Assembly: GCA_000146465.1 (NCBI GenBank)
Contig: CP001952.1
Length of the DNA: 64,000 nt
Reading direction: 5' to 3' (one strand)
Shown: positions 15,264 to 54,561 of the stretch, in pieces
How positions within the stretch are numbered: the first letter of the stretch is position 1
Layout of the letters: each line of letters opens with the position of its first letter
Made by a program: the position numbers and the translations under genes
The notes under the pieces: model-generated
Told to the model about the DNA's origin: nothing
The model's input: the letters and a program-made list of their open reading frames with translations, nothing else
Database searches by the model: none

Positions 15264-15574
15264 ATGGAGGGTAATCTTGAGACAAGGATATCTAGGGCCT
15301 TGGAGAATGAGTTCAAACCTGCAGCCTTAGAGGTTAGGAACACTACTGCCAATCATGTGGCCCATAGGAAGCCCGAAGATGGAAAAGTTCTTGAAACACA
15401 TTTTTACGTCAGGGTGAAGTCTTCGGCATTCAACGGAATGGTAAGTTAATGATCGCCGTATAATTTAAGAGATTTGCAGACAGGCATAGGCTTGTATATA
15501 AGGCACTTGAATTTGCTTTTGAAAAAGGCCTTCATGCAATTGAGATGGATTGCGATTCTGACGTCCAAGAGTGA
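15264..15574 (+). CDS. BOLA: BolA-like protein. Spliced as join(15264..15440,15470..15574), 93 aa.
   Basis: Exon 1 ends ...HFYVRVKSSAFNGM (BolA core). The track ORF stops 2 codons into GTAAGT. Removing a 29-nt GTAAGT...TAATTTAAG intron continues in frame with RFADRHRLVYKALEFAFEKGLHAIEM..., the conserved BolA C-terminal RHRLVY/HAL motif. Confidence 0.7.
15441..15469 (+). other. spliceosomal intron (29 nt) in the BolA-like gene
   Basis: 5' GTAAGT. 3' TAATTT-A-AG. Splicing restores the conserved BolA C-terminus in frame. Confidence 0.65.
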
Positions 15575-15719
15575 CTAGGATTATCTTTCTTTAATTTAAA
15601 TTTAATTTGATTTGATTTAATGGTGCCTTTGTCTTAGAAACTTCAATTTATACCTTTTTGGTAAAAAGAATTTATTCTTTTTTTTGTTTTACTTTAAATA
15701 ATGAACAAGGTTTTTGGCC

Positions 15720-16469
15720 ATGCTTCACCTATTATATCTTGCATTTGCCTTGTGCCATGAAGTTCCTGATGTATGCACTAGTTCTGGGATGATAGCAATC
15801 AACTTTGTAGATGGACCAGTCAGGGGAGTGACCGATAAGGTTCTAAACACTCTGGAAGAGCTTGGCGTGAAAGCTACTTTTTCGTTTACGGTGAACCAGA
15901 AAGCCGTCGGAAATGTAGGGCAGTTGTATAGGAGAGCAGTCAACGAAGGACATACTGTAGGATTGAGAGTCGATCCAAGGATGGATGAGGGATACCAAGA
16001 TATGTCTCAAGAGGCCTTGGAAGATAATATTGACCGGGAGATAGATACAATCGACGGACTCAGTGGAACTGAGGTGAGATATGCGTCTGTGCCCATATCC
16101 AATGGAGAGGTTAGCTCTGAGCTATATACCATCCTTACCCAGAGAGGTGTTCTTCCCCTAGGATATACCTTCTGCCCATATGACTACGACGACCCTATAG
16201 CCGAATTCGAAGCCATGATAGAAGGATCAGATCCCAAACACCATTCCTTCATCATCTTAATGCATGACGGACAGGAGGGAGATACTTCACGCTTGGAGAA
16301 GATGGTGGAGATAGGAGAGAAAAAGGGATATACTTTTACTAACATGGATGAATGTCTTCGAGGCTATAAAGGCTCTCCTGGAGATCCGGAGCTCAATCTC
16401 AGAGGAAAGGGTGCTGCAAGCCTCGCTACGTTCCTCCCTTTCTTCATGCTATTGGGGCGACTTCTCTAA
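15720..16469 (+). CDS. CDA: polysaccharide/chitin deacetylase (NodB domain), secreted with a hydrophobic C-terminus
   Basis: Signal peptide [15 protein letters not shown]. NodB-type fold (FVDGP..., [15 protein letters not shown]). C-terminal hydrophobic tail [18 protein letters not shown] suggests a GPI or TM anchor. The track start at 15714 is TTG. First ATG is at 15720. Confidence 0.85.
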
Positions 16470-16657
16470 AGTATAAATAAATATACAAATCTTATGATCA
16501 TGTAATTATTTAATGGGCTCATGAATGCCTTCGGCATAGAAATCCATGTACTGTGTGATCTCTCTATCGTTAGTCCCATATTTCTCGATATGGGAATGTG
16601 TTTATAGAGACAGGACTTAAGCGTTAAGCACGACAATAGGCTTTATATTCTATATTT

Positions 16658-17659
16658 TTAGGATATTTCTTCCTCCTTTTCATCAGAGGTCTCCTGACAG
16701 CGGGAATCAAGCAAACACAGGCTGGGAGGAAGCAGAAGGTTACATTCGGAGCAGAACCGGATGGTGTCTTTGCTTACGTCGTAGTACCCGGGATATGGCT
16801 GGTAAGAAAGATGAAATTTACCATATCGGTTCTCCACAAACCCATATCCCTCGTGTACAGACTGCTTAATGTCAAACCCGTTCACGTGGTTGAAGTCTGG
16901 ACTAAAGAAATATCTATTCATCAAAAACTCCACATCAGAGACCCACCCGCTGTATGGGCCAGGCGACTTCCGGGCGTAGTACTTTGCTCCTTCAATTCCT
17001 AACCAATGAAATGCATCTCTTATCCATTCCAAAGCAAAATTGAAATCTTCGTCTCCATCGGAGATCTCAGTACTCTTGAGACAGTAGTTTGCAATAAGGA
17101 CAAATTTGTCTAGTTCACTAAAAAACTCCTCAAGAAGATGCTTTAACTTGATTTCCTTCTTCAAGCTCTTGGTCTTTTGCTTGAAGTAAAGGTCTTCAAG
17201 AACCACAGTATAGTTATTTCTTCCTTCTGCATTGCATAGGAACTTCGGATTTGGATGGTTCCTTCTATTTTTCTCGATAGCCATATCAGAGATACTTGGA
17301 GTCTTGATATTTTTATATAGATTCTCTGCCTCCTTGAGAGAATATATACTCAAAAGCCCCTCACATTCGTCTGAATCTTTGCAATCAGAACTGCTACTGC
17401 CATCATTGCTTGATAAATCTTCTTTATTTTCCTCATGGAGATCTTTAGAGGTAATAAATGGCCCTACTTTGGAATCCGAGTATCCAAGATTAAGACTTTC
17501 TTCTTCGCAATTTTCAACAGAAGTGCCGTTCTTGAACAACTGTTGTATCTTCATTTTCTCTAAAGAGGACTTTTTCAATCTTGTTGGATCATTGCTTATG
17601 TCTAACTCCACGTCATTCAAGGAGCTCTTAATTCCTTCCTTTCTTCCAGAAACTTCCAT
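16658..17659 (-). CDS. hypothetical protein, 333 aa (acidic S-rich N-terminus, Cys-rich C-terminus)
   Basis: Track start at 17662 is TTG. The ATG at 17657-17659 is followed by a GGG motif. Possible C-terminal CxxC...C...C knuckle. Family not recognised. Confidence 0.5.
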   Translation of the reverse strand: MEVSGRKEGIKSSLNDVELDISNDPTRLKKSSLEKMKIQQLFKNGTSVENCEEESLNLGYSDSKVGPFITSKDLHEENKEDLSSNDGSSSSDCKDSDECEGLLSIYSLKEAENLYKNIKTPSISDMAIEKNRRNHPNPKFLCNAEGRNNYTVVLEDLYFKQKTKSLKKEIKLKHLLEEFFSELDKFVLIANYCLKSTEISDGDEDFNFALEWIRDAFHWLGIEGAKYYARKSPGPYSGWVSDVEFLMNRYFFSPDFNHVNGFDIKQSVHEGYGFVENRYGKFHLSYQPYPGYYDVSKDTIRFCSECNLLLPPSLCLLDSRCQETSDEKEEEIS

Positions 17660-17725
17660 CAAGGGTTGAGAAGGGTGGCGCCTGTAAAGACTCAGTTCAA
17701 TTTTAGCCCAAAAGAAAGAACATAC

Positions 17726-17920
17726 ATGAATGTTAGAGAGTCATTCATCAGTACAAGAAAGACAAATGTGTCTAGAGAAGATTCCGAGAAAGATTGCTAT
17801 GAGGAGGAATACTATAAATGGAGGATACGTGATTTGAAGAGAAAGATAAGAGACATTAGGAAAGAAATCATTCGGGCAAAGAACATTGGAACTTCCGGAA
17901 ATGATCCTAAAATTTATTGA
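17726..17920 (+). CDS. possible small basic coiled-coil protein (64 aa). Doubtful.
   Basis: ATG at 17726 preceded by CCC. It overlaps the 3' end of the TrpRS gene by ~14 nt on the opposite strand. K/R/E-rich (YYKWRIRDLKRKIRDIRKEIIRAK). Could be noise. Confidence 0.2.
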   Translation: MNVRESFISTRKTNVSREDSEKDCYEEEYYKWRIRDLKRKIRDIRKEIIRAKNIGTSGNDPKIY

Positions 17921-19064
17921 TGTCCATAAATACTTTCAAGTCTTCATCGGTAATCTTCTTTCGGGATTCTTGATACCTTAAAACAAATTCTTGAACAATA
18001 GAAATACATTTCTCCTTCATTTCCCTGCTGGTAATCTCTCCCTTAATGTATCCCAACCGATATCTTTCAAGCTCCTGATCATCATCCAAGAAATATCTCA
18101 GATATTCAAATGGGACATCCACATCGATATTTCCTCCCTTTTCCCGATGTTCTTCCAATGTTTCCCTACCCCCAGAATAAGCATGCACTGTAATCTTCTT
18201 TCGTATTGTTTCCGGTGTATCGTCCAAATATATGGAGCTATTTGGATCGCTAGCAGACATCTTTCTATTCACACCTTTGAGATCTGGAAGAAGGGATACG
18301 TATGCAGACGAAGGCTTTCTCTCCCCAAGCGTATTTGCTTTGTCTCTTGCCAACCTGAAGAACGGGTCCTGATCAACTGCTGCAAAAACAAGACACATTG
18401 CATCCTCTTCAATAAATTTAAAAGAGCTTGGAAAGCAGGGTGCTATTTCTTTTGATGGAAATCCCACCTGCCCTATGTTGCTGGATGTGTTGAATCCAAA
18501 GATCTTAGATACCTCATTGAAGTTGATTGTCTTCGATATCTTCAGGACATTTTTTTCGAAGTGATGAGAAGATTCAACATTAGAAAATATATACGTCAGT
18601 TTTGGATCAAAACCTAGTGCTATAATATCCTTCATGTTTTCTTTCCCATACGATATAGCATCCTCGAGTTTCATATTTTTCCACAGGAACTTCTCGTCGT
18701 CAGTTATTTGAATTACAAGATGTACTTTGAAAGTGTCCTGAATGTACTTACAAAGAAGGAAGGGGATGATGTGGCCAATATGCATTGCCTTCGAGCTGGG
18801 GCCTCTTCCTGTGTACAGATAGAATGACTTGTTCTTGGATACTTCATCAAGCAAAAGGTTAAAATCCCTGTGCCCAAAAACTATGCCTCTCCTAAAGAAG
18901 TAGTGTGCTGGCTTGTTTGTAAGTTGTTCTAAACGCTTCACTAGATCCTGATTAAAGCGCTCGCAGCCAAACTGATTAACTACCTTGTCGTAGTCGATGG
19001 CCACAGGCGTCTCGCTTGTAGATACAACTTCCACGTCCCAAGGTGTAATCTTTTGTTCTTCCAT
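17907..19064 (-). CDS. WRS1: tryptophanyl-tRNA synthetase (cytoplasmic type)
   Basis: HIGH motif (SSKAMHIGHIIPF) and KMSAS motif (RKMSASDPNSSIYL). Strong overall match to eukaryotic TrpRS (VIQITDDEKFLWK). Confidence 0.9.
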   Translation of the reverse strand: MEEQKITPWDVEVVSTSETPVAIDYDKVVNQFGCERFNQDLVKRLEQLTNKPAHYFFRRGIVFGHRDFNLLLDEVSKNKSFYLYTGRGPSSKAMHIGHIIPFLLCKYIQDTFKVHLVIQITDDEKFLWKNMKLEDAISYGKENMKDIIALGFDPKLTYIFSNVESSHHFEKNVLKISKTINFNEVSKIFGFNTSSNIGQVGFPSKEIAPCFPSSFKFIEEDAMCLVFAAVDQDPFFRLARDKANTLGERKPSSAYVSLLPDLKGVNRKMSASDPNSSIYLDDTPETIRKKITVHAYSGGRETLEEHREKGGNIDVDVPFEYLRYFLDDDQELERYRLGYIKGEITSREMKEKCISIVQEFVLRYQESRKKITDEDLKVFMDINKF

Positions 19065-19133
19065 TTAGGGGAGGCATGTTCACATTTAATATAGTTGAAA
19101 GACCAAAAATTAAAAAATTAGCTTCCTTTGGAA
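19065..19133. promoter_or_regulatory. divergent intergenic region (TrpRS <- -> mtHsp70) with a GGGG motif abutting the TrpRS start codon
   Basis: cat-ttaGGGGagg immediately 5' of the minus-strand ATG. Similar CCC (plus-strand genes) or GGG (minus-strand genes) motifs lie within ~15 nt of most start codons here. Confidence 0.4.
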
Positions 19134-20912
19134 ATGGCGGAAATGAGCTCTCTAAGCAAAAAGCTTTCTTCAAGCATAATAGGAATAGACCTGGGAACAA
19201 CCAACTCCTGTGTGTCTGTAGTTAAGAATGGGGAGCCTTTAATAATAGAAAACCAAGAGGGAGAGCGCACCACACCTTCGGTTGTGTCGATACTTGGAGA
19301 CGAAGTTATTGTAGGCAACCAAGCCAAGAGTAGGATGTTAATGAATCCCAAAAACACAGTGTTTGCATCCAAAAGACTGATAGGCCGGAAACTTGAGGAT
19401 CCAGAGGTGAAGAAGTATGTAAAGGGCCTTCCTTTCGATACAATGTCTCACTGTAACGGAGATGTTTGGATAAAGATTGATGGAAAGAAGTATTCTCCAG
19501 CACAAATAGGTGCGTTTGTACTTTCTAAGCTCAAAAAGAGTGCAGAATCATTCTTAAATCATCCGGTTGCAAAGTCGGTCATAACAGTTCCTGCATATTT
19601 TAATGATAGCCAACGTCAGGCAACAAAAGATGCAGGAAGAATAGCTGGGCTGGAAGTTGTAAGGGTGATCAATGAACCGACAGCTGCAGCACTTGCATAT
19701 GGCCTTGACAAGCTGGCAAAGGGAAATATTGCAGTCTATGATCTCGGAGGGGGAACCTTTGACATTTCTATTCTTGAGCTGAGCAATGGAGTGTTTCATG
19801 TAAAAGCTACTAACGGAGACACATTTCTTGGAGGAGAAGATCTTGACAATGAGCTTGTGAAGTTTATTATTGAAGACTTTAGGTTGAAGGAGGGAGTTAA
19901 CTTGGGTGAAGATATAAATGCACTAACGAGAATCAAGGAGTGTGCAGAAAAGATAAAGAAGGATTTATCTTCGTCTCTTTCCTCAAGAATCAACATACCA
20001 TACATATGTAGTATTGAAGGAAAGCCAAAGCATCTAACCAGAGAAATCACCCGGGACGAGTTGGAGAGAGTGGTTAAGAAGATTGTGGATCGTACTATTG
20101 AGCCATGCAAGAAAGCACTTAGGGATGCAGGGATGGAGGGTTCGGATATCAAACACGTGATACTGGTGGGGGGAATGACCCGGATGCCATATGTCCGAAG
20201 GGTAGTCAAGGAGGTGTTTGGAATTGAACCTTCTACCGGTATCAATCCCGATGAAGCCGTTGCAAAGGGAGCAGCATTGCAGGGAGGAGTTCTTACGGGA
20301 GAGGTTGATAATGTGCTTCTCCTGGATGTTGCACCTCTAAGCCTAGGAATTGAACTCCTTGGAGGAGTGTTTAACAAGATAATAAGAAGGAATACAACAA
20401 TTCCATTTAAAGAAACACAGACGTTTTCTACGTCAGAAGATAATCAAACAGAGGTGGACATCAAGGTATACCAGGGGGAGAGATCCATGGCATTGGATAA
20501 CAAGTATCTAGGACAGATCAAGCTCAAGGATATTCCTCCTCTTCCTCGAGGAGTGCCTAGGATTGAAGTGACGTTTGAGTCCGATGCTAACGGGATGTAC
20601 AAAGTAACTGCACAGGATAGTGTCACAAAGAAGCCGCAGTCTCTAGAGATAATTCCATCTAGTGGATTAACAGAGGAGGAGATAAACAAAATGGTGGAGG
20701 AAGGAGAAAAGCATAGACACTTAGATGAGATAAAAAGGAGGAAAGCTGAGCTTATTGTTTCTTCGGCCGAGTTTCTTCGAAGACCATCCTCAAGCTTGGC
20801 AAAAATCTCCAAGGACTGCTTAGACACGATTAAAAGAGCTGTGTCTGGAGAGGAGTTTGATTTGGAAGAAACAAAGCAAGCACTGGAAAATGCAAAGAAA
20901 GCCATCTCTTGA
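19134..20912 (+). CDS. SSC1: mitochondrial-type (DnaK-like) Hsp70, i.e. mitosomal Hsp70
   Basis: IGIDLGTTNSCV, VPAYFNDSQRQATKDAGRIAGL, DLGGGTFD. DnaK/mtHsp70-type rather than cytosolic. Track start at 19128 is TTG. First ATG is at 19134. Confidence 0.9.
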   Translation: MAEMSSLSKKLSSSIIGIDLGTTNSCVSVVKNGEPLIIENQEGERTTPSVVSILGDEVIVGNQAKSRMLMNPKNTVFASKRLIGRKLEDPEVKKYVKGLPFDTMSHCNGDVWIKIDGKKYSPAQIGAFVLSKLKKSAESFLNHPVAKSVITVPAYFNDSQRQATKDAGRIAGLEVVRVINEPTAAALAYGLDKLAKGNIAVYDLGGGTFDISILELSNGVFHVKATNGDTFLGGEDLDNELVKFIIEDFRLKEGVNLGEDINALTRIKECAEKIKKDLSSSLSSRINIPYICSIEGKPKHLTREITRDELERVVKKIVDRTIEPCKKALRDAGMEGSDIKHVILVGGMTRMPYVRRVVKEVFGIEPSTGINPDEAVAKGAALQGGVLTGEVDNVLLLDVAPLSLGIELLGGVFNKIIRRNTTIPFKETQTFSTSEDNQTEVDIKVYQGERSMALDNKYLGQIKLKDIPPLPRGVPRIEVTFESDANGMYKVTAQDSVTKKPQSLEIIPSSGLTEEEINKMVEEGEKHRHLDEIKRRKAELIVSSAEFLRRPSSSLAKISKDCLDTIKRAVSGEEFDLEETKQALENAKKAIS

Positions 20913-21039
20913 TAAAGTATCCGTTTGCAACAAAAATATCTATTGCTATTTAATTTCCAAGGGATATAATCTGAAACAAAGCAAGATTAGATGTAATGAA
21001 ACATGTTGATAAACTAAGAGCCCCCGAAAACAAAGACTC

Positions 21040-21795: not shown

Positions 21796-21858
21796 AATAC
21801 TAGATATCTAATTAAAACTTTCGAATACCTCCGAAGCTTTTAAACTGTCCAAAAGATC

Positions 21859-22293: not shown

Positions 22294-22310
22294 CTCTAAG
22301 CCTCATGGGT

Positions 22311-23841: not shown

Positions 23842-23950
23842 TTTGACTACAGGGCGGGATATTAGCCAAAAATATATTTGCTGTAAAACATTTAGGAAAC
23901 TCCTATGGCAGATTCCCTTGGGCCTTATTCCTTGGATAAACTCCCGGCCC

Positions 23951-24211: not shown

Positions 24212-24275
24212 AGAAGGCTGTGTTTGCAGAGCTCCCTAGTTTGGTCGAGTAAAAAATTTTCAAGACCCCTTCCAT

Positions 24276-25687: not shown

Positions 25688-27493
25688 TTAGGACTGATTC
25701 AAAGATGCAATGATGTCTAGTATTTCTCTTCTGCTCATCACAACAGAAGATGAAATCGACTCCTGGATGCTCAGGTCGAAGTAACTAAACAAGTTCAGGA
25801 TGTGCAGAACTATTGGACTTTTCAATGACAAGCTGTGGAGGTGAATATCAGAGTTCAGATAGTCCCTTGGATTCAATCCAAACACAGCCTTAAAACACCC
25901 CATAATCGACGTCTGTATTCCAAGAAGCTTAAGATAGCTAGAATTGTCGACTCCATTTACATGGACCAGTTGGTTGGACCTTGAATACAGCATAATACTA
26001 TTCTTCCTAAACCCTACTCTGGAAGATGAGAGTCTTCCCAGATTGGTTTTCATCTCCACTCTCTTGACAAGTTTAGCTCCATCCATGCTTATTATGTTAT
26101 TTGGAGAGTAGGTGTATGCATGAATTGTTCCCTTGATGTCGCAACACACCATCGAAAGCTCATTGCCAGTAATAAGAAGTTCTGTAGAGGTTGCATTCTT
26201 AAGAGGCTCGCTAGAGCTTATCAGGTGGAGTCTAATTGGCTTGGACTGGAAGAAAAAGAACGACAAGCCTCTATAAATGTCGGATGCAAGAATGTAGTTT
26301 TTAACCACAGATATAGAGGATGTAAATGTGTGCAAGTCATGGAAACCTATGGGTATTATCCCGCTGCCCCTGTCAATTTTGTAAATCATTATCTTGGTTC
26401 CCAAACATAGTACAATCTTACCACGAACTTCAGAGCATTGGACAATCGATCCCTTAGTCTTTTCAATTCCCAAAACCTTGAGTTTACAGTCTTTGAAAGG
26501 GCTCTCCAACGACGGAACAACAGAAATTATTTCTAGTACATGAAGCCGGCCTTTCGCAGGCCTATCTTCTCCTTCAATGAAGGTTGTGCAAACAAGTAGA
26601 AAAGGGGACTTTCCATAATTTCCCTGCATATCATCCAAAACGAGATACTGGATATCAAAGACATACTCGTTCTCTTCTAATTCATAAGTACTTATATGCT
26701 CGTATTTCTCCGAATACAGGTCGACATAGAACCGATAGGTGTTTACAGGAACTCCACAGTCTTTTCCATTCTTTGGGGAAAACTCAACTTCTTCGCATGA
26801 GGCTACTACCATGTACCGATCTGCATACTCGATGTGCTTTGGTGTTCTAAGAACTGGAATCTTTTTCCCAATAAATCCGCTTCCAAAAACATATCCGTTT
26901 TCAATGCTGGGGACTCTGCAGACCATTAGATAGCCTTTGGAGAGTTGTATCACATCGTCTCCATCCATAGCTATTGAATTTAGAGTGTACTGACTTCTGT
27001 ACAAAAAATGTCCCTTGTCTGTTGGAACCATAAATACGTTGGTTGTTGCTTTTATGAATACCATTGTACCCACATTGTAAAATGCCTTGGTCTCCGGAGA
27101 TAGATTGAAGGCAATGTGTCTTGGAAGATGTATTTTGAAAAAGATTACTTCAGAAGGAAGGGTTTCCCTGAGAAGTGCCTCCAGCCCGAAGGATTCATAT
27201 GCAACCATGTAACCTCCTTTCAATCTGAAGAGCATAAGAATCTTGGTGCCCGTTGCAAGCATGGCCATCTCTATAACGGCTTCATCATCGTTCTTCTCCG
27301 ATAGATCTATAGGTACAGATGTCTCCGATGAAAATCTTATCGCGTATGGAACGCCTCTTATTGAACAAGGAGGAAATTGCCCCATCCGTTTGTCTATGTC
27401 GAAGATGCTCAAAAGATCATCAGAAAGAATAAAAACCTTATTCCCGATATCTGCAAAACATGTAACGTTAGGGATGCAGGTAACCACGGTCAT
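25688..27493 (-). CDS. SF3b3/CPSF160/DDB1-family beta-propeller protein, C-terminal portion (CPSF_A domain), 601 aa. Lower half of a split gene.
   Basis: CPSF_A-type C-terminal propeller pattern (..ILASDIYRGLSFFFFQ...LITGNELSMVCCDIKGTIHAY). The ATG at 27493 lacks the GGG/CCC start motif and lies 65 nt below the stop of the upstream same-family ORF. Confidence 0.6.
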   Translation of the reverse strand: MTVVTCIPNVTCFADIGNKVFILSDDLLSIFDIDKRMGQFPPCSIRGVPYAIRFSSETSVPIDLSEKNDDEAVIEMAMLATGTKILMLFRLKGGYMVAYESFGLEALLRETLPSEVIFFKIHLPRHIAFNLSPETKAFYNVGTMVFIKATTNVFMVPTDKGHFLYRSQYTLNSIAMDGDDVIQLSKGYLMVCRVPSIENGYVFGSGFIGKKIPVLRTPKHIEYADRYMVVASCEEVEFSPKNGKDCGVPVNTYRFYVDLYSEKYEHISTYELEENEYVFDIQYLVLDDMQGNYGKSPFLLVCTTFIEGEDRPAKGRLHVLEIISVVPSLESPFKDCKLKVLGIEKTKGSIVQCSEVRGKIVLCLGTKIMIYKIDRGSGIIPIGFHDLHTFTSSISVVKNYILASDIYRGLSFFFFQSKPIRLHLISSSEPLKNATSTELLITGNELSMVCCDIKGTIHAYTYSPNNIISMDGAKLVKRVEMKTNLGRLSSSRVGFRKNSIMLYSRSNQLVHVNGVDNSSYLKLLGIQTSIMGCFKAVFGLNPRDYLNSDIHLHSLSLKSPIVLHILNLFSYFDLSIQESISSSVVMSRREILDIIASLNQS

Positions 27494-27558
27494 CTCCCTA
27501 TCATAAAAAACAAGTCTTTTTTCGGAATCCCTTACTGCAAGAAATAATCCACTACAAA

Positions 27559-29151
27559 TTATTTTTGCCTCTGCCGCTTTGCTAGTAAAGTCTCCTCTAC
27601 CACCTTAAGGTTATGATCCATTCCCAACCAGAAGGTAGGTGTAATCTGAATTATTCCAGTGCCGAACTCCGCAAAAAGTAACGTGTCCATATCTTTAGCA
27701 TATTTTCCATCCACTTCCAAAAGACTCTTTTCAGGCCATTTAAAGACCTTTGTATCCCCTGCTCTACCCAGAATGTAGAAGTCTAAGACCCTTGAACAAT
27801 ACAAATATCTTCTTGTCTTCTGAGACTTCAAGATTTTCAATGGCATAATATTGCTTACAACGCGTACTCCGGGCTCTAGTCCTTCAACAACAAAGACTGC
27901 TTCATTTTCTCTTTTCATCGCCACTTCATTCAAAAATCCGATGTTTGAAATCTCGTCAACTTGATGGAGAGTAAAAGTTTCTCCAGCTCTTGACTCAGAA
28001 CCTTCATTGAAAAGCTTGGCATACTCTTCATCTTGTTTCTGGGTTTCTTGGTCTTTGTTTCCAAACAGTTTAGAATACTCTTCCAGTACACTTCTTTCAG
28101 CCGGGATGACATTTTCTTCTGTCCTTCGCCGGAGGCTCTTTATTTCAAACAACTCCGAGCTGTCGCCTATAGATCCAACAAATAAGAGGTTCTCCACCTC
28201 TCCTATGCAACTGGCTATAGATCCTCTTCTCTCAAACTCCAGAGATGCCCCTATGATTCTTTTTATGTCCATCGATATCTCGAGTCTATATCGATCTCCA
28301 TTTCCATTGAATATCAGGCAGGTGTTTCCTCTCGAAAAGAAATTTACATCAAAAAGAACTACGTCGTTAAGTGCTTTGCCCGCTTCACATGCTTCGGACA
28401 TCCTATTCAAAGGAACCGAGTACGAGCTGCTTGTAGATCTTATTAATATAGAGTTGTGTGATATAAACAGTAGGATGGAACCGGCACATACCACCTTAAA
28501 TGTTTTTGGGGGAACTAGAAACTCGTCGATAGTATGGAATTTTCCTGCACTTAGATCAATCGAAAACACTATGGCATTGTAATTCCTTACAACTGTGTAC
28601 TTCTTAGGAAGCGAATCGTACACCAGACACACAGTGGGAATGGAATAGTTTTCCAGAAAAGTAAAGTCGATTGGATTCTTGATCTTTCCATCGATATCTA
28701 TAAACTTAAAGACCTTTGCGTTGAACATCCCAGGAAACAAAGGAAAGACACTAAAATAACGCTTGTTCATCTGAAACATCCCTAGATCAGTGCCTATTCG
28801 GACATTCCTTATATCTTCGTCTTTGATGTCGAACTCATCCTTTTCGAAAAACTTTAAAGACGTTGTCTTGAATTCGTTTTCCTGAGGATCAAACCTCACA
28901 AGAGAAATCTTTGCCTTATGAAACAGAAAAACTAGACCGTCTTGGTCTGGAGATATCCTATACTTTTCCACCTGGCAAACTCTCTCAAATAGAATATGCT
29001 GCTTCACCAAAACCAGCCCCGAGCCGTACTTCCAGAGTCTTACGATGTTCCCGTTATATGTTAGAAACGAATGTGTCCCGGGTATAAAGAACCCTGCAGA
29101 ACATCCCTCGACGCTGTTCCATGGACTCTCTTGTGAATATAGGTAGTTCAT
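27559..29151 (-). CDS. SF3b3/CPSF160/DDB1-family protein, N-terminal portion. Upper half of the split gene.
   Basis: N-terminal propeller blades. Probable start MNYLYSQ... (ATG 29149-29151, GGG adjacent) rather than the track start 29238. Ends AKRQRQK-stop at 27559. The 27493 ATG frame stays open upstream to ~27604 (..IICSGLFLAVRDSEKRLVFYDRE..), resembling SF3b3 RFLAVGLVDNTVRIISLD. Confidence 0.6.
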   Translation of the reverse strand: MNYLYSQESPWNSVEGCSAGFFIPGTHSFLTYNGNIVRLWKYGSGLVLVKQHILFERVCQVEKYRISPDQDGLVFLFHKAKISLVRFDPQENEFKTTSLKFFEKDEFDIKDEDIRNVRIGTDLGMFQMNKRYFSVFPLFPGMFNAKVFKFIDIDGKIKNPIDFTFLENYSIPTVCLVYDSLPKKYTVVRNYNAIVFSIDLSAGKFHTIDEFLVPPKTFKVVCAGSILLFISHNSILIRSTSSSYSVPLNRMSEACEAGKALNDVVLFDVNFFSRGNTCLIFNGNGDRYRLEISMDIKRIIGASLEFERRGSIASCIGEVENLLFVGSIGDSSELFEIKSLRRRTEENVIPAERSVLEEYSKLFGNKDQETQKQDEEYAKLFNEGSESRAGETFTLHQVDEISNIGFLNEVAMKRENEAVFVVEGLEPGVRVVSNIMPLKILKSQKTRRYLYCSRVLDFYILGRAGDTKVFKWPEKSLLEVDGKYAKDMDTLLFAEFGTGIIQITPTFWLGMDHNLKVVEETLLAKRQRQK

Positions 29152-29265
29152 TGGGGTTGCAATTTCCCGGTGCCAAACCCGGTTTTCCCACCGAAGACCA
29201 TATTGCAAGCAAATCTCGCACTGGAAAAAGATGAACATAGGGGTATAAGTTTAATACAGGCCGGT

Positions 29266-31554: not shown

Positions 31555-31791
31555 ATGAATAAGGACAAGATTAAAAAGACTCAACTACTCAGTGACTTGG
31601 GGAGATTTAAAGGAAAAAAAATAACAGTAACTTTCATTGATGGAAAATCGGTGACTGGAAAGCTCACATCGTTTGATGACGTTGGTAACTGCGTTCTGAA
31701 AAAGTGTGGAGAATGGGACTATGGGAATACCGTAGTGTGCTTGGGAAGAAGCATAGTACTTGTGTGTTTAAACGCACCATACATCCTGTGA
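31555..31791 (+). CDS. Sm-like (LSm) protein, 78 aa
   Basis: Sm1/Sm2 pattern KKITVTFIDGKSVTGKLTSFDDVGNCVLK. CCC motif upstream. Confidence 0.65.
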   Translation: MNKDKIKKTQLLSDLGRFKGKKITVTFIDGKSVTGKLTSFDDVGNCVLKKCGEWDYGNTVVCLGRSIVLVCLNAPYIL

Positions 31792-38340: not shown

Positions 38341-38365
38341 AGGGGTGTTTCCTCTGTACCTTTCC

Positions 38366-42673: not shown

Positions 42674-42819
42674 TAAAATTGAAGAATCAGAAGAAAGTCT
42701 TCATCACTATTCAGCCAGGGATAACTTTGACTTCATCACTTTCTTGGGGTGATTCTTTTCACGTTTCTTATTGTTCTTACAAGCCGGGAAATGTTGTTAT
42801 GATACAAAAGACTGCTTTA

Positions 42820-47176: not shown

Positions 47177-47258
47177 AAGATCGCCCTTAATTCCTTCTGG
47201 TCCAAGACATCCCAGTGCTTTTCAAGAAACATGTTCTCCATTCAAATTCTATCCAGCA

Positions 47259-49328
47259 TCATCGAGTTATCTTGTACATTCCTGCACCTTTCTTTATGAT
47301 AAGCCCGTTGTGGTTGAGTGCTTCTATAAAATCATTGGCAGGCTTTCCGGAATCAAAAGATATTATTAGTCTACGTAGCTCCTCAACACTAACTACCCAT
47401 TCTCCCTTCTTCCTTCCATATTCCTTAAGCACCTGAGAAAAATCCCCATTTCTTCTACTATTAGACATCTTTTCTCTAGGAACAAACGTCCTCCTATGTA
47501 GTTCGATACAAAAAACTGCATCTGCTCTTGTAGCTATACTCCTCAATTCTGCTTTCGCTCGAGCTTCTGTTAGTCTAATCAACGACTCCAGATCCCTTGC
47601 AGAAACCCCTCCCTGCTTCCGGATCTCAACATAATATTCTCTTATGGCTTCTTTTGCCGATTTGCTCAGAACAGGAAACACATTTGCACGTGCATAGGAA
47701 ATATACTTCCTCATTATCTCCATTGGATAAACATCTCCTCTACTTCGGACTTCCTCAATAAAGTCATCTCTTCTAATCGTCTCCATAATATCGTCAAATT
47801 CACTTCCTATTCCTGGAGACAATGTCTGCCTTTTCTTCAGAATTTGCCCAGATATCATGTAGCTCTCCTTTTCAGACAGGTCGTCTAGAAGGAGAAAGAC
47901 AAGATCAAACCTTGACAAAAGGCCTGGGTCAAATCTTATGTTTTCCATCATTGATTTGGTTCTATCGAAGTGTCCATGCCTTGGATTAGTTGCTGCTATC
48001 ACAGTAGACCTTGTTGGAACACTACAGATCACTCCTCCCTTTGCTATGCTTACTTTCTGATCTTCCATGGCTTCAAATAAAGCTGCATGGTCGTCTATCT
48101 TGTCAAACTCATCCAAACAGCATATTCCATTGTCGGCCACCACCAGTGCTCCTGCATCCGCCATATATTCCCCAGAAACAGGATCGTGTGTCAAGGAAAC
48201 CGTTAATCCAGCTGTTGTGGTGAAGCTCCCACTCACGTAACTGCTCTTCGGAAGAATACTACATGTCCCCAACAGCAGCCTGCTTTTTCCAAGCCCGGGA
48301 TCTCCGATTATAAGGACATGTGTTTCAGACCTAATCAGATGCTGTCCTGCCATCTTCCTGGTTCCCCCAAATAAAGAAAGCACTAGTCCGATCTTTATCA
48401 GTTCATTTCCATACACGGACGAATAAAGCGAGCGCACAAGAGAGGCCAGCGTGTTTTTTCCCTTTGCTATTCTTCTAAATTCCGCAAAGTCTCTACTTTG
48501 ATATTCCAGGCTCTCTATAAAAAAATTCTTGTTCTTGACAATTTGAAGATTGTTTATATGGACCATCAATCTGTAGAGGCCGTCGTTTTCTAATTCAACT
48601 CCAAGCACTCCTACAATCTGCACAATGTCTCCTGGCACTAGAATCCCCACAAATTCATCGTAAAGAATGCAGTCCACAGCCTTTGGGATTCCCTTTCCAT
48701 CTTCTCCTATTCCCCCATAGAGCTCCTGTATTTTGATTTCCTGCATGTCTCTGCATTCCATCTCTGGATGATTTCGCATAAGAACAAAACTCCTTGAGTT
48801 ACACGAACCTTTGCATCCTGCCGGAGGTCTGTAAACGTTGTTCTTTACATTCACGTATATTACGTCTCCACACTTGGAACACTCAAAAAACATCTTACTG
48901 ATAATTACTCTTCTGAACCCCACTCGGCATACTGTTCCTGCCATAAAGACCAGCTTCCCAAGATTGGCTCTGTCAACATCTCCAAAATTTCCTTCCTTGT
49001 TCACTGTCTCGACCCTAGTACAGATCTTTACCGACAAATACCCTTTGTCATAGAGTAGCTCGGAAACAGCACAGGAAACACACAGAAGTAAGTTTCCTGC
49101 GTTTGTATCAAGAAGATTCTTTTCAACAAGACTCTCGAGATACTGCTCCGATATATAGTAGACTCTTGCTTCTAGAATCCTCTCCAGTTTATCCTCTGAT
49201 AAAACGTCTTTCAATTTCTTCTTTACTGCAAGTATTATCTGGACAAGCTCGTTGAAAGCAGTGAACTCTTCCTCGGGGAAATACATGTTCCATGTTTCTA
49301 TGTGCATCCCCTTGGATCTAGTACTCAT
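47259..49328 (-). CDS. MCM: MCM2-7 family replicative helicase subunit (paralog undetermined)
   Basis: Zinc-finger region CSKCGD...CKGSC. AAA+ MCM box with Walker A IIGDPGLGKS, Walker B/MCM signature CLDEFDKIDD, arginine finger SRFD. Confidence 0.9.
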   Translation of the reverse strand: MSTRSKGMHIETWNMYFPEEEFTAFNELVQIILAVKKKLKDVLSEDKLERILEARVYYISEQYLESLVEKNLLDTNAGNLLLCVSCAVSELLYDKGYLSVKICTRVETVNKEGNFGDVDRANLGKLVFMAGTVCRVGFRRVIISKMFFECSKCGDVIYVNVKNNVYRPPAGCKGSCNSRSFVLMRNHPEMECRDMQEIKIQELYGGIGEDGKGIPKAVDCILYDEFVGILVPGDIVQIVGVLGVELENDGLYRLMVHINNLQIVKNKNFFIESLEYQSRDFAEFRRIAKGKNTLASLVRSLYSSVYGNELIKIGLVLSLFGGTRKMAGQHLIRSETHVLIIGDPGLGKSRLLLGTCSILPKSSYVSGSFTTTAGLTVSLTHDPVSGEYMADAGALVVADNGICCLDEFDKIDDHAALFEAMEDQKVSIAKGGVICSVPTRSTVIAATNPRHGHFDRTKSMMENIRFDPGLLSRFDLVFLLLDDLSEKESYMISGQILKKRQTLSPGIGSEFDDIMETIRRDDFIEEVRSRGDVYPMEIMRKYISYARANVFPVLSKSAKEAIREYYVEIRKQGGVSARDLESLIRLTEARAKAELRSIATRADAVFCIELHRRTFVPREKMSNSRRNGDFSQVLKEYGRKKGEWVVSVEELRRLIISFDSGKPANDFIEALNHNGLIIKKGAGMYKITR

Positions 49329-49452
49329 TTAAATATTTCCGAGGCTTCAGGAAACCATGATGTAACCGGCTTGGATGGAAACAGAATCTTTGAATGGAAA
49401 ACACCAGCCTTTTTACCAAGAACAAAACCATCTATTTTTTTTCCCCTGGAAA

Positions 49453-50229
49453 ATGCCTCAAAACGACTTTGTGGAAAGACATATAAAAAAGTATGGAAGG
49501 CGTCTGGACCACGAGCTAAGGCAGTATAAGAAGGACAGAAGAGAAGAGAAAATGGTTTCAAGAAAGGCCGAGAAGCTGTTTGGGCTGAAGGCTAAGCTGT
49601 TTGCCAAGAAGCAGCGTGCTTCAAAGATCCAGCTAAAGAAGGATCAGAAGATGAAGGAATTCAAGGAGAAAAAGATGGAGGTTAGTATTGAGAGCAATCC
49701 ACTTCCTCACTTCCTCCTTGACAGGGAAATGGAAGAAAGGGCCAGGGACATCAACAACAAGATCAAGCAGCAGAGGCAGGAAAAGGGATCGAAGTATTCT
49801 GTTCCATTACCTAAGATTCATCCTCTCCCAGAAAAGGAAGTATTTGGGGTAGTTTCAAGCGGAAAGCGACGATCAAAGCACTGGAAGAGAATGGTTACTA
49901 AGCCTTGCTTTGTGGGAAGTGACTTCACAAGAAAACCTCCGAAGTATGAGAGATTCATAAGGCCGATGGCAATGAGATTTAGAACTGCACATGTAAGCCA
50001 TCCTGAACTGAGCTCTACATTCAATCTCAAGATAATAGGGCTAAAGAAAAATCCCCATTCCGAGGTTTATACAGGGCTTGGAATATTGAGCAAGGGGACC
50101 ATTATAGAGGTGGATGTCAGTCCCCTTGGGCTTGTCAATGGAGCAGGGAAAATCATATGGGGTAAGTATGCTCAGATAACCAACAACCCCGAGAATGACG
50201 GATGTGTGAATGCTGTTCTTCTGGTATAG
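49453..50229 (+). CDS. NSA2: Nsa2 ribosome biogenesis protein (S8e-like family)
   Basis: MPQNDFVERHIKKYGRRLDHELRQYKK matches the Nsa2 N-terminus. C-terminal S8e-like region. The ATG at 49453 is preceded by CCCC. The track ORF starts upstream at 49375. The spacer shared with the divergent MCM gene is ~124 bp. Confidence 0.8.
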   Translation: MPQNDFVERHIKKYGRRLDHELRQYKKDRREEKMVSRKAEKLFGLKAKLFAKKQRASKIQLKKDQKMKEFKEKKMEVSIESNPLPHFLLDREMEERARDINNKIKQQRQEKGSKYSVPLPKIHPLPEKEVFGVVSSGKRRSKHWKRMVTKPCFVGSDFTRKPPKYERFIRPMAMRFRTAHVSHPELSSTFNLKIIGLKKNPHSEVYTGLGILSKGTIIEVDVSPLGLVNGAGKIIWGKYAQITNNPENDGCVNAVLLV

Positions 50230-50348
50230 AAAAGTAGATTTGCCTAAATAGATTATGTTTACAGGCTTCCTTCAACAGCTAAAGAGAGAGAAGTGGAGTG
50301 TTATCGACTTGACTAAACATATTTAGTTTTTGGAATTATTTGGATTTT

Positions 50349-51353
50349 TTACTCATCAGGGTCGTTGATACCCTGCTCGGTGATGGCAAAGACTGCCTCG
50401 GACTCGGGGAGACAGGGCGAATCATATATCTTGCATATCCTTGTTTCTCCTCTCCCCTTACGCAGATACAATCTTGTTGTGCTTGCATGTGCCATAATGT
50501 TCCCCCCTATAGGCTTCTTGATGTCTCCAGCAAACATCCCTACAGCTCCATCCACATTGGACACTACCTGATTGGTGATTATGACAGCAACCCGGAATGT
50601 CTCTGCAAGATTAACAAGACTTCGGAGATACTTTGCCAAGTGCAGCTGCCTAGCCCCAAGCTCCCCTCTCCCACTGAAGTCTGTTCTGTATAGAGCAGTT
50701 GCAGAATCAATTATAAGAACCGAATACTTTGACTCCGACATCATTGCCGATGCTTTGATTAGAAGTTGAGATTGATGGTCGGAATTATATGCTCTTGCAT
50801 ATGATATGTTGTCCATGACCTCATCTGGATCTAATCCAAATCTCTCTGCTATTGGAATGAGCCTCTCCGATCGGAATGTTCCCTCGGTGTCTATGTACAT
50901 AGCCTTTCCCCCTCCGCCTCCCTGTTCTGGAGGAAGCTGGCATGTGACAGCAACAGTATGGCAGAGCTGCGTCTTTCCTGTCCGAAACTCCCCAAAGATC
51001 TCTGTTATGCTCCCAGACTCAAATCCACCATTCAGTAACTTGTCGACCTCCGAGGATCCTGTGGTGAGGTAAACAAGCTCGGACCTTCTCTGGTGATATG
51101 CCGATGCCGTTGTAAACCCCATTGGAACCAGTTTTGCAGCCTCCTTGATTAGCTTATCCACCTTAACATCCGAAAATCCCTTTATCGAAAGAAGCTGTCT
51201 CTTCGGAGCAAATGCCAGCGACTCGACTGTTGTAAACCCTGCTTCTATCAGCTTTGCTATGTCCACAGCTAATATCCCCCCGTTCTTCAGTTCTGATATA
51301 GAGATGCTCTCGGAATGATACTCTGCGTCCTGATATTGGTACTCCTCGCTCAT
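50349..51353 (-). CDS. RAD51: Rad51-type recombinase
   Basis: HhH N-domain, Walker [14 protein letters not shown], and [21 protein letters not shown]...[31 protein letters not shown]...[10 protein letters not shown], near-identical to Rad51 blocks. I chose the start at MSEEYQ (GGG adjacent). The track ORF extends 48 codons upstream. Confidence 0.9.
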
Positions 51354-51453
51354 GGGCAAATTTTTTCTCTCCACTTTATGCGCTTGCCATTGACTCCTTG
51401 GCCCCATCATTCCATCATGAAAGGATTGTAAAAACACCCACTGAAGCAGCCCC

Positions 51454-51780
51454 ATGAAGGAGGAAGAGTTCAATGAGCTCAAGCAGAATCTAGACAACTA
51501 TACCCCCCTGCTTCCCGAATCAGTGATCGACTACTTTATGGAAAAGGCCGGAATGGTTACCTCAGACCAGAGTATGAAAAAGCTTGTTTCCCTACTGGCC
51601 CACAAGTTTGTCACCGACATCGCCATCTCTTCCTTTCAGTATCACAGAATAAACCAGAAGGCTGCACAGAAGGATAAGAGGTTTGCAAAAGAGAAGAAAC
51701 CCACATTCCAACTCATAGATCTTGAAAAGGCCCTTGAGGAGGTGGGAATAAGCATCTCAAGACCCCACTACTACATGTAG
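51454..51780 (+). CDS. TAF10: TFIID subunit TAF10 (histone fold)
   Basis: [22 protein letters not shown]...[19 protein letters not shown]...[22 protein letters not shown] is collinear with the TAF10 C-terminal histone-fold region (...AAQKFISDIANDALQHCK...LTMEDLTPALSEYGINVKKPHYFT). Confidence 0.8.
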
Positions 51781-51826
51781 ACAGGTTGCACAGAAACATA
51801 AACATTTAAAATTTTTACTAGTCTCT

Positions 51827-53188
51827 TTATTCTTTGGTAATTAGTATTTCCGCATCCCTTCTCTTGGGCTTTGGCTCTAGGAAATAGAACTTCTTCAAGG
51901 ATTTCGCCACACTAACATCGCTTCCATCTGTTCCTTTCTTCTTCGGGTCTCCATCCTCTAAAGCCCTTACTAGGTCATTCCAACTAATTCTATCAACATT
52001 TCCATCATTTGCAAACGATATCTTCTTCAAAACATCCACAATCCTAGACTGTGCCATTCCATTCGTCATTCTAATCAAATCGTTGAATCTGTTTGTTATT
52101 TCCTTCTTACAATCTCCAAGATACTCCTCAAGAATCTCCAATCTTTCTTCGTCGTTTGGAAGCTGGAACTCGTAAACTCCCGAAAATCGACGCTTGAAAG
52201 CATCGTCAAGTGAGTCGTATAGATTGGTGGCTCCAAAGAGAAACACATTGCTGTTCACCTTATCGCATGCTCCCCCAATCGTGTTCAAAAACTCGGTTTG
52301 TGCCTTTAACGTGTAATCCTGTGATCTATCCGATCTCTTAGAAAAGAACACATCCACTTCGTCGATAAACACAAAGCTCGCCCAGTAGTTCCCATCATTT
52401 GCACTCTGGAACAACGCACGGATGTTCTTTTCTGTTTCTCCAACATATTTGTTGTTCAGCGAAGATGGTGTCACAAATGTTATTCTGGTGAGCGATTCCA
52501 TTTGCCTTGCCCTTACCAGCTTCTCATTGTGATCCATTCGGTCAAACTCCTCTTCCCCTATCTCGCTTCTCATCTTTAAGAACTTGATATTTAGATCAAC
52601 AAGATATATTAACTTCTTCATGAAAAGGGTCTTTCCTGTTCCAGGAGGCCCATGAAAAAGGAAGTTTCTTTGTGTTGTTTCTATGGTCTTGTGGAGTTCC
52701 TTCTCGGGAACAGTCCTTAGAAGGCTAACAATCTTTGTCACTTGTGAAATCACTTGTATCATCAAATCCTCCTTCCCAAAATAAGGAACATTCTCAAATG
52801 TTGATCCATCACGGAACGAAGGCTTGTCTTGATCTTCCATCTTCTCATCCTTCTCCTTAGACGTCTTTCCAATGCTCCCTCCTCCTTCTGAGACAATTAT
52901 TCTGTATATTACATATGCAAACACAAGGATAATTATTATAAGATAAAGGACTCCCTTTGTGCCTCCACTTGTATCTTTTGTCTTCTCTGTTTTGGGCTTT
53001 TTCTTTATTCCATAGTCCTTTAAGATCTTTCTATATATCAATGCTCCAAGAATATCGTTATTGATGTCTCTTTTCTTTTCCTCTGGTTTATTATCCTTTG
53101 TTCTGTTTTTCACTTTCTCATACTCTTCTTCATCCTCTGCCGTTTTGTTTTCTACTTTGTAGTTCTTGGACGCTTCTAAATCTCTCAT
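51827..53188 (-). CDS. membrane-anchored AAA+ ATPase (Msp1/ATAD1- or Bcs1-like; subfamily uncertain)
   Basis: Charged N-terminus, one TM helix (GVLYLIIIILVFAYVIYRIIV), then an AAA module: Walker A FHGPPGTGKT, Walker B VFIDEVDVFF, sensor-1 FLFGATN. Confidence 0.7.
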   Translation of the reverse strand: MRDLEASKNYKVENKTAEDEEEYEKVKNRTKDNKPEEKKRDINNDILGALIYRKILKDYGIKKKPKTEKTKDTSGGTKGVLYLIIIILVFAYVIYRIIVSEGGGSIGKTSKEKDEKMEDQDKPSFRDGSTFENVPYFGKEDLMIQVISQVTKIVSLLRTVPEKELHKTIETTQRNFLFHGPPGTGKTLFMKKLIYLVDLNIKFLKMRSEIGEEEFDRMDHNEKLVRARQMESLTRITFVTPSSLNNKYVGETEKNIRALFQSANDGNYWASFVFIDEVDVFFSKRSDRSQDYTLKAQTEFLNTIGGACDKVNSNVFLFGATNLYDSLDDAFKRRFSGVYEFQLPNDEERLEILEEYLGDCKKEITNRFNDLIRMTNGMAQSRIVDVLKKISFANDGNVDRISWNDLVRALEDGDPKKKGTDGSDVSVAKSLKKFYFLEPKPKRRDAEILITKE

Positions 53189-53396
53189 AAACCTCCGATT
53201 CTATGGGTATTCCAAAAAGATTTCAAGAATCAATGTCCAAAACCAACTCCTGGACTACTCCTTACATTATTTTTGCGAGGCTCTAATAGGACTCGACTCC
53301 CCTCGGCCTATGGGAGCTCCAGACTGTTCATAAGCCCTAGACTCCTTTTGAGCTCCTTTTCCAGATCTTTTTAACAACCGACCAAGGAATGCCAAA

Positions 53397-54561
53397 ATGG
53401 ATATCTCCGAAGAAAAGTTCGATGTACTGGATTCTGTGCATGTCTCTGGATTCCGAATATTGAAAGACAGTGGGGAGTTCTACCAAAGAATTAAGTTTCT
53501 TATGCAGAACTCGACATCAGTATGTATAGCATCCCTATTCTTTGGAAAGAACGGAGAAATGGAGGACATCATCGACATTCTCGAAGAAAGAAAGAGGAAG
53601 AATCTCATGACAATCATCTTCATCGATAAAAACAGAGGGACAGTCTTCGAAAGTCTGGAGTCTATAAAAAGAAGGGGTCTTGGCTCATTTTTTCATCTTG
53701 TAGATCTCTCTACGTCTTTCCTGCTTCCAAGGAGACTAAATGAACTTCTCAGAACCTTCCATACTAAGGCCTTGGTTTTCGATGGCCTAACCATATTATC
53801 TGGTGCAAACATGGATGCATCGTACATGACAAACAGAGTAGATAGGTAAGTGAAGCATTTTAATTTTAAGATATCTCGAGATTGACAGTAGGGAGCTGGC
53901 GGATATGATCAGATCTAGAGTCTTTGGAATAAGGCCCCCTTTGGAGGCTGGAAAAACTATATGCCAGGGCCTTCCAGTGTATGTAGGTATGTTTAAAGAG
54001 AAAGAGGAGCCTGCCATAGTCCAGTCGTTTCTGGAAGACTTCGACGAGATACACATTTCCACAGGATATCTGAACTTTCCGGCTCGCTATTTCAAAATGC
54101 TCCAAGGAAAGAAGGTGTCTCTCTATGCTTCATGCCCAGATAAGAACACCTTCGACTCGTTTGGACCCTTGGAGCGATTCATAGGCCCAGCTTATTCATA
54201 TAGCTTCTACAGAACTCTCAGATCAATTTCAAGCCTTTCCATTCACGAGCTGAAGAGGGACGGCCATTCATTCCATCTGAAAGGTAAGTGGAATTGTTAA
54301 TTTCTAGGCTTCTGGGGATTCAAGGGCAGAACAGCTGCAACCATCATAGGCTCATCAAACTTCAACAGGAGAAGCGTAGAAAGAGATGACGAAACAAATT
54401 ATCTAATAATCACATCCGACCCAGACCACGTTCAGAAGCTGAGGACTGAGGTGGAATATCTCAAGAGTAACTCAGAGGCAAGGACCTTGAAGCAGCTTAG
54501 AGGAAGGACATACCAGTTGGCCGTAATTCTATTGTTTCTGATTTTCAACAGATTCTTCTAA
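53397..54561 (+). CDS. PGS1: phosphatidylglycerophosphate synthase Pgs1 (PLD superfamily). Spliced as join(53397..53845,53871..54283,54308..54561), ~371 aa.
   Basis: Exon 1 ends HTKALVFDGLTILSGANMDASYMTNRVDR, the first HKD motif (human PGS1 HMKVYLFDNSVILSGANLSDSYFTNRQDRY). Exon 2 ends ...HSFHLKG. Exon 3 continues FWGFKGRTAATIIGSSNFNRRSVERDDETNYLII (human HAKGFW...IGSPNFGYRS). Both junctions have GTAAGT / TAATTT-N2-AG and keep the frame. The unspliced track shows three fragments. Confidence 0.75.
53846..53870 (+). other. spliceosomal intron 1 of PGS1 (25 nt)
   Basis: gtaagtgaagcattttaattttaag. 5' GTAAGT, 3' TAATTT-TA-AG. The junction sits between the conserved R and Y of NRVDR|Y. Confidence 0.7.
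54284..54307 (+). other. spliceosomal intron 2 of PGS1 (24 nt)
   Basis: gtaagtggaattgttaatttctag. 5' GTAAGT, 3' TAATTT-CT-AG. Phase-1 junction inside the second HxK(G)FW catalytic motif. Confidence 0.7.

Follow-up and report, generated by a model that had tools for sequence, protein, structure and literature searches.

The stretch of DNA analysed here (the window, 64,000 nucleotides of contig CP001952.1) is part of chromosome 11 of Encephalitozoon intestinalis ATCC 50506, a microsporidian with a genome of 2.3 Mb, published in 2010 (PMC4355639). It contains three introns of 29, 25 and 24 nt, the first in a gene for a BolA-like protein and the other two in PGS1, the gene for CDP-diacylglycerol--glycerol-3-phosphate phosphatidyltransferase. 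These are very probably ordinary members of the ultra-short class of major-type (GT-AG) spliceosomal introns known from Encephalitozoon. Conserved genes are interrupted, their proteins are restored when the introns are removed, the intron positions are common to sister species, and strong constraint is found only on two terminal motifs. Sequence comparison supports the view that the signal common to the three is a genuine spliceosomal mini-intron module, in which a branch-site-like TAAYTT is followed 1-2 nt on by AG without a real polypyrimidine tract. The introns and their signal are real and were read correctly at the core by a first-pass annotation of this DNA, but they are already published and nothing about them is new. 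The finding is a rediscovery of the way in which the few, very small introns of a genome among the smallest of eukaryotes are marked, with two rigid motifs and little else; it is textbook-level knowledge in the genomics of microsporidia and brings no new biology.

The pattern GTAAGT-N(5-35)-TAATTT-N(1-2)-AG matches the window exactly three times, always on the plus strand. It is far rarer in shuffled sequence, with a mean of 0.06 matches in 100 dinucleotide-preserving controls, none of which reached three. There are 23 GTAAGT hexamers and eight TAATTT-N(1-2)-AG sites in the window, three of each lying in the introns, and it is only there that the two are combined. No further candidate was found in relaxed scans of the window that allowed GTANGT, GTNAGT or GTAAGN as the 5' site, TAAYTT as the 3' element, 0-6 nt before the AG and a spacer of up to 70 nt, and RPS20 showed no intron in its 5' region. 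The lengths and coordinates of the three introns given in the first-pass annotation are matched exactly, the 3' ends that it quoted (TAATTTAAG, TAATTTTAAG and TAATTTCTAG) are correct, and the open reading frames (ORFs) are restored when the introns are taken out.

Excision of the 29-nt segment fuses two frames into a protein of 93 aa that scores 72.6 bits against Pfam BolA and is identical to NCBI KAL7348454.1. Excision of the 25-nt and 24-nt segments fuses three frames into a PGS1 of 371 aa with a Pfam PLDc_2 match, identical to ADM12572.1/XP_003073932.1, the second HKD motif of which is interrupted by intron 2 (HLKG|FWGF). It was first suspected that this second intron was unannotated in E. 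intestinalis, since the top match was a protein of 292 aa, but ADM12572.1/XP_003073932.1 ruled this out; PGS1 is cut to 292 aa in two 2025 draft isolates only, through a missed intron 2. Retention of the 29-nt or the 25-nt intron causes a frameshift and that of the 24-nt intron introduces an in-frame TAA; retained introns would yield truncated proteins.

By their terminal sequences the three introns are of the U2 type, each having, like 11 ortholog introns, the 5' site G|GTAAGT and an AG terminus, and the branch motif sought upstream of the AG (YTRAY) is represented by ATAAT, TTAAT and TTAAT. Elsewhere the corresponding sequence is CTAAT in E. romaleae and E. cuniculi and GTAAC in Ordospora. 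Features of the U12 type were not found in them, the 5' site being GTAAGT and not [AG]TATCCTT, and the branch site TCCTTAAC being absent from all three. In each case length, 5' site and 3' element agree with the short-intron class of Encephalitozoon, which is defined by a size of about 22-50 nt, (GT)AAGT, TAAYTT and an AG a few nt away.

Comparison with related genomes proved informative. The PGS1 locus was compared in E. romaleae, E. cuniculi, E. hellem, an Ordospora-like assembly (from public sequencing reads) and Vairimorpha bombi, and the BolA locus in E. hellem, E. cuniculi, one further Encephalitozoon and Ordospora colligata. The latter was reached via the neighbouring deacetylase gene; a search with the BolA protein gave E. 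intestinalis sequences only. The E. cuniculi orthologs are ECU11_0850 for PGS1, with two introns, and ECU11_0505 for BolA. All three introns occupy identical codon positions in every Encephalitozoon species compared. Ordospora, too, has the BolA intron, with TAACTT as its 3' element. PGS1 intron 2 is kept in the Ordospora-like assembly (locus 1501-2700) and intron 1 is cleanly missing there, while in Vairimorpha bombi (locus 1501-2601) both introns are cleanly absent and the coding sequence is exactly continuous over the junctions. G at -1, GTAAGT, TAAYTT and then 1-2 nt to the first AG are found in all 14 ortholog introns. When the relaxed pattern was run on related loci totalling 59 kb, it recovered these 14 true introns, two of them from another E. 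intestinalis isolate, together with one false positive that lies antisense to the E. romaleae cytidylyltransferase gene.

Conservation across four Encephalitozoon species is very unevenly distributed. Within the intron core motifs (GTAAGT and TAATTT...AG) 45 of 47 columns are invariant (96%), compared with 12 of 31 in the intron spacers (39%), 46 of 177 at flanking third codon positions (26%) and 243 of 356 at flanking first and second codon positions (68%). The spacers drift at close to the synonymous rate. PGS1 intron 1 has 22 of its 25 columns invariant in four Encephalitozoon species. Length also differs between species, from 26 to 29 nt in the BolA intron and from 23 to 25 nt in PGS1 intron 2. 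Since the spacers vary in both sequence and length and the motifs do not, what is under selection is the pair of motifs and the spacing between 3' motif and AG, and not the intron as a whole.

The possibility that the interruptions are assembly errors, lesions of pseudogenes or sites of programmed frameshifting, and not introns at all, was also considered. A frameshifting error or variant does occur at least once in this assembly, in the gene for the polyadenylation factor CPSF160, but the interruptions stand at the same codon positions in the independent genomes of four to six species, with GT...AG ends and motifs conserved and spacers differing. Moreover, in E. cuniculi the splicing of both introns of ECU11_0850 has been confirmed by RNA sequencing (RNA-seq), the upstream one being spliced more than the downstream one (PMC3629993). 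We accord the non-intron explanation next to no probability, and the cross-species data have effectively refuted it.

The pairing, branch and 3' splice-site steps that can be proposed for these introns rest on what is established about splicing and on the papers cited. The U1 small nuclear RNA (snRNA) of Encephalitozoon has the 5' end ACUUACC (PMC5499648), with which G|GUAAGU would pair perfectly over 7 nt. The element [Y/A]UAAYUU would be the branch site and would pair with U2 snRNA, the second A of UAA being bulged and serving as the nucleophile; it is read in this way because it fits the consensus WCTRAYN and because it has been labelled a 'putative branch point' in the literature (PMC2483917). 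The predicted branch A would lie 17-23 nt from the 5' end of the intron and 6-7 nt from its last G, and in all three introns the 3' splice site would be the first AG downstream of it. Only TTT(T/C) would stand between the two, which is effectively no polypyrimidine tract, and with the AG so close to the branch A the branch site and 3' splice site could act as one fixed module for which such a tract is unneeded. The fused branch-point/3' splice-site element, essentially lacking a polypyrimidine tract, that was proposed from the window alone is in this way backed by cross-species conservation and by the literature. A minimal system of this kind is inefficient in E. cuniculi, where intron retention is frequent and 81% of junctions are spliced below 50% (PMC3629993).

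Several points weigh against this account. Support for splicing at the RNA level comes from the E. cuniculi ortholog and not from E. intestinalis, the pairing with U2 is one that we infer, the U2 snRNA gene lying outside the window, and some public BolA models place the intron elsewhere (GTTAAT...GCAG, 35 nt), so that a second acceptor may be in use. In addition, the literature itself calls TAAYTT a 'putative' branch point. This last point would also suit a different view of the element, in which TAATTT(N1-2)AG is an extended 3' splice-site signal or a vestigial pyrimidine signal (TTT, TTTT or TTTC) read by a protein and the branch A is elsewhere in the spacer. The invariance of the T-run after TAA is in keeping with such a signal, as is the variation of the base preceding TAA (A, T or C), which would make U2 pairing upstream of the branch weak. 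It is nevertheless quite unlikely, given that the variable spacers offer no other conserved adenosine context, that TAAY fits the pan-eukaryotic branch consensus tabulated in PMC2483917, and that an anchored arrangement of branch site and AG recurs in other intron-poor lineages.

The boundaries of the BolA intron require separate consideration, as the public gene models disagree about them. The RefSeq protein XP_009161910.1 (91 aa) corresponds to a 35-nt intron, GTTAAT...TTTGCAG at 15445-15479, and it is conceivable that this is the true intron or that both acceptors are used. The reading frame is kept under both splices, and for three E. cuniculi genes Grisdale et al. reported rare use of an alternative acceptor lying downstream (PMC3629993). 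GTTAAT, however, departs from the invariant GTAAGT 5' site, and at the place of the alternative acceptor the E. cuniculi sequence lacks an AG (GCTGATGG). The consensus splice, by contrast, restores the usual spacing of five residues ahead of RHR and is the one used in the EcunIII-L model and in that of one 2025 E. intestinalis isolate, and the RefSeq splice reaches only 66.5 bits against Pfam BolA, 6 bits less than the consensus product. Use of the 35-nt intron, alone or as a second form, is thus very unlikely, and the consensus splice is favoured because GTAAGT and TAATTTAAG are invariant, the alternative AG is missing in E. cuniculi and the Pfam score is higher.

An E. hellem BolA model (93 aa) likewise has a non-consensus intron, GTTTAT...GCAG, of 24 nt (2239-2262 of its locus), and in E. 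cuniculi GB-M1 ECU11_0505 is annotated unspliced as a protein of 65 aa (2051-2248 of its locus). On the sequence evidence the boundaries in the RefSeq E. intestinalis and E. hellem models are probably wrong. The practical value of the analysis is confined to annotation quality, with wrong or missing boundaries in the BolA models of RefSeq E. intestinalis, E. hellem and E. cuniculi GB-M1 and in the PGS1 models of the two draft isolates. Another case of inconsistent intron annotation is the E. cuniculi PGS1 entry UYI26288.1 (366 aa), in which, compared with ECU11_0850 (372 aa), the acceptor of intron 1 is placed further downstream and six codons (RYLEVQ) are removed.

An extension of the preferred model could be envisaged in which the strongly reduced spliceosome of Encephalitozoon reads the invariant UAAUUU-N(1-2)-AG as a single unit and a second BolA acceptor is also used for a shorter isoform. 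If this were true, the spliceosome would read a branch-AG distance of 6-7 nt, far below that of yeast or human, with no need of a conventional U2AF/polypyrimidine step, and an in-frame acceptor 10 nt downstream in the BolA genes of E. intestinalis and E. hellem would give an isoform two residues shorter. We consider the combination quite unlikely, and both ideas go only slightly past published work.

The signature itself was described between 2008 and 2013 as (GT)AAGT together with TAAYTT, a putative branch site near the AG (PMC2483917, PMC3629993). TAAYTT and (GT)AAGT were present in each of the 13 E. cuniculi introns studied in 2008, and TAACTT is among the published forms (PMC2483917). The short introns of E. 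cuniculi and E. intestinalis fall in the same size range as those of the window (22-76 nt reported), with the same GT-AG ends, (GT)AAGT and TAAYTT near the AG (Katinka 2001; Lee et al. 2010; PMC2483917, PMC4355639, PMC3629993), and on retention they likewise cause a stop or a frameshift. The two PGS1 introns of the window have their orthologs in ECU11_0850, and the BolA intron has its ortholog in ECU11_0505. There is no substantive difference between the known introns and these three, the strict TAATTT being a subset of the published TAAYTT. The window introns are internal and in non-ribosomal genes, whereas the original Encephalitozoon set was at the 5' end of ribosomal-protein genes. A set added in 2010 resembles the window introns in this respect.

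Two other systems are useful for comparison. Trichomonas vaginalis, Giardia lamblia and Yarrowia lipolytica are likewise intron-poor and combine a strict branch motif and a fixed branch-AG distance of a few nucleotides with the lack of a polypyrimidine tract, a design described by Irimia and Roy (PMC2483917). Their motif is ACTAAC followed by AC or ACAC and AG, as against YTAAYTT, 1-2 nt and AG here, and the Trichomonas/Giardia-type 3' motif ACTAACACACAG was not found in the three window introns, which end in TAATTT(N1-2)AG. The arrangement in these independent lineages is a convergent analogue and not the result of shared ancestry. The long microsporidian introns of about 76 nt in the poly-A-binding and S23 genes (PMC6349667) depend on the same spliceosome and share the core 5' and branch motifs, but they are three times longer, with a hyper-extended branch site, an internal stem-loop and extended complementarity to U2, and their splicing is efficient (about 80%). 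The window introns, unlike these, belong to the short, poorly spliced class.

The use of the motif as a genome-wide intron finder, suggested in the first-pass annotation, already exists. A near-identical regular expression was applied in this way in 2012, and it is essentially the same search in a slightly more relaxed form (PMC3486916). It over-predicted badly in another microsporidian, Trachipleistophora hominis, for which Whelan et al. found most or nearly all of the predictions from that pattern to be without RNA-seq support (PMC6349667), and the motif alone is consequently insufficient outside Encephalitozoon. A spacer of N(8-30), as originally proposed, is also too short for the 76-nt intron of the poly-A-binding-protein gene (PMC6349667). 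The element TAATTT holds for the three introns of the window and fails as a strict consensus, for introns with TAACTT exist both in Ordospora BolA and among the published E. cuniculi set; the strict form is in this respect too narrow, which partly bears out the refuting case named in the first-pass annotation, and for use in a finder the motif is better written TAAYTT.

Table 1. Exons, introns and splicing-related or comparable features of the window (positions are those of the whole window).
Feature	Position	Strand	Details
BolA-like exon 1	15264-15440	+	59 codons, ending ...AAC GGA ATG
BolA intron, 29 nt, phase 0	15441-15469	+	GTAAGT-TAATGATCGCCGTA-TAATTT-A-AG; putative branch element TAATTT at 15461-15466
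BolA-like exon 2	15470-15574	+	carries RHRLVY motif and stop codon
CPSF160/Cft1, cleavage and polyadenylation factor	25688-29238	-	Pfam CPSF_A
Match to 3' motif only, TAATTTGTAG	27552-27561	-	coding sequence of CPSF160 (K-I-I-C-S)
LSm protein, nearest LSm7	31555-31791	+	Pfam LSM 37.5 bits, 1.9e-9; PDB LSm7 8e-5
PGS1 exon 1	53397-53845	+	CDP-diacylglycerol--glycerol-3-phosphate phosphatidyltransferase, PLD-like
PGS1 intron 1, 25 nt, phase 2	53846-53870	+	GTAAGT-GAAGCATT-TTAATTT-TA-AG; TAATTT at 53861-53866
PGS1 exon 2	53871-54283	+	
PGS1 intron 2, 24 nt, phase 1	54284-54307	+	GTAAGT-GGAATTG-TTAATTT-CT-AG; TAATTT at 54298-54303
PGS1 exon 3	54308-54561	+	ends at TAA stop
DEAH-box RNA helicase, Prp22/Prp43/Prp2/Prp16 group	54583-56586	-	Pfam DEAD, Helicase_C, HA2, OB_NTP_bind
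U5 snRNA gene	56658-56763	+	Rfam RF00020 54.9 bits (gathering score 40)

One site on the minus strand had been noted at the outset as a false match to the 3' motif, and this judgement was right: TAATTTGTAG has no GTAAGT upstream and is coding sequence of CPSF160 (Table 1). The CPSF160 gene is split in this assembly into ORFs of 559 and 601 aa (27559-29238 and 25688-27493), and a hidden fourth intron between them was considered. It was rejected, as newer E. intestinalis assemblies have a single CPSF160 of 1184 aa in which ...KVVGRGDFTSKAAEAKIICSGLFLAVRDSEKRLVFYDREMTVV... is read straight over the gap, TAATTTGTAG included as coding sequence. Compared with those assemblies, this one therefore has a short indel near 27596, within a GA-rich run, that shifts the reading frame, and reconstruction from the protein suggests that 4 nt are missing there. 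The frameshift probably reflects either faulty sequencing in the 2010 assembly or a difference between strains.

The window was also said to encode four spliceosome genes, namely SF3b1, a protein of the SF3b3/CPSF160 family, a DEAH helicase and an LSm protein, and of these the last two are borne out. The helicase has the DEAH core with HA2 winged-helix, ratchet and OB domains typical of the spliceosomal DEAH-box proteins, and its best matches in the PDB are Prp22, DHX15 (Prp43), DHX8 and DHX16, at about 1e-133 to 1e-140, so that it is assigned at group level. Prp43 is active in ribosome biogenesis as well. The LSm gene is named 'U6 snRNA-associated Sm-like protein' by NCBI. No SF3b1 or HEAT-repeat match to Pfam was found among 42 window ORFs, which include every ORF of at least 100 aa and leave only a few small ones outside the scan; the longest ORF, of 1420 aa, is a PI3/PI4 kinase by its Pfam match. 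The 1184-aa CPSF_A protein was considered as a candidate SF3b3/Rse1 and rejected, as a sequence search of the PDB gave only CPSF1 (1e-24) and yeast CFT1 (1e-20) and no SF3b3/Rse1, and NCBI names it cleavage and polyadenylation specificity factor; it is CPSF160. The U5 snRNA gene, in contrast, was overlooked in the first-pass annotation. Its invariant loop 1 (GCCUUUUAC) and Sm site (AAUUUUUGG) are visible in the alignment, and it sits between the DEAH helicase and the cytidylyltransferase gene, in synteny with E. romaleae, E. cuniculi and E. hellem. A permissive Rfam scan of the window gave no snRNA other than U5.

The DEAH helicase, the U5 snRNA gene and the two-intron PGS1 adjoin one another (53.4-56.8 kb), and this arrangement is kept in four species, which might be thought to point to a functional neighbourhood tied to the introns, for example through co-regulation. 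Gene order, however, is conserved over almost the whole core genome of Encephalitozoon (PMC4355639), so that conserved adjacency carries no functional signal. In E. cuniculi there are about 30-37 spliceosomal proteins among some 1,830-2,000 genes (PMC3629993, PMC5499648, PMC4829280), and a window of 55 genes would be expected to hold about 0.9-1.1 of them, against two observed; the probability of two or more is about 0.23 assuming 30 such proteins and about 0.30 assuming 37 (arithmetic from the count in PMC5499648). With SF3b1 not found, the CPSF_A protein a polyadenylation factor and the remaining genes of the window, about 50, having functions unrelated to splicing by Pfam, a functional neighbourhood is highly improbable. 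The co-location is a matter of chance and is not significant, and the helicase, LSm and U5 snRNA genes would be unconnected neighbours in a very gene-dense genome. Directly upstream of BolA lies the gene for an RRM-domain protein, Eint_110350 (14598-15212, plus strand); it was not counted as a splicing factor, the similarity of its RRM to those of U2AF65 and RBM7 being insignificant (E about 0.02).

The window as a whole has a G+C content of 38-44% and about 55 densely packed genes with very short spacers between them, and the proteins that it encodes match, at 100% identity, entries of E. intestinalis ATCC 50506 with the locus tags Eint_110290 to Eint_110370 and onward. Two further RNA features were seen on the minus strand. 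One is a very compact RNase MRP RNA gene (57850-58010; Rfam 63.7 bits) of about 160 nt, compared with a model of 266 positions, and the other is a C/D-box snoRNA-like match to snoR38 (42680-42747) in the spacer after an XPG-family nuclease gene, its 41.7 bits being slightly under the gathering score of 45. About 2 kb at the end of the window (61927-64000) has no ORF of more than 121 aa and no Pfam match, which is unusual beside the intergenic spacers of typically about 115 bp, and this region may hold a gene that is degraded or evolves fast, or it may be non-coding. Two CTP synthase paralogs, at 11245-12852 and 58113-59720, lie in the same orientation (minus strand) 45 kb apart. Their identity is 93% at the protein and 94% at the DNA level, unusually high for a fast-evolving genome, and this similarity suggests a recent duplication or gene conversion.

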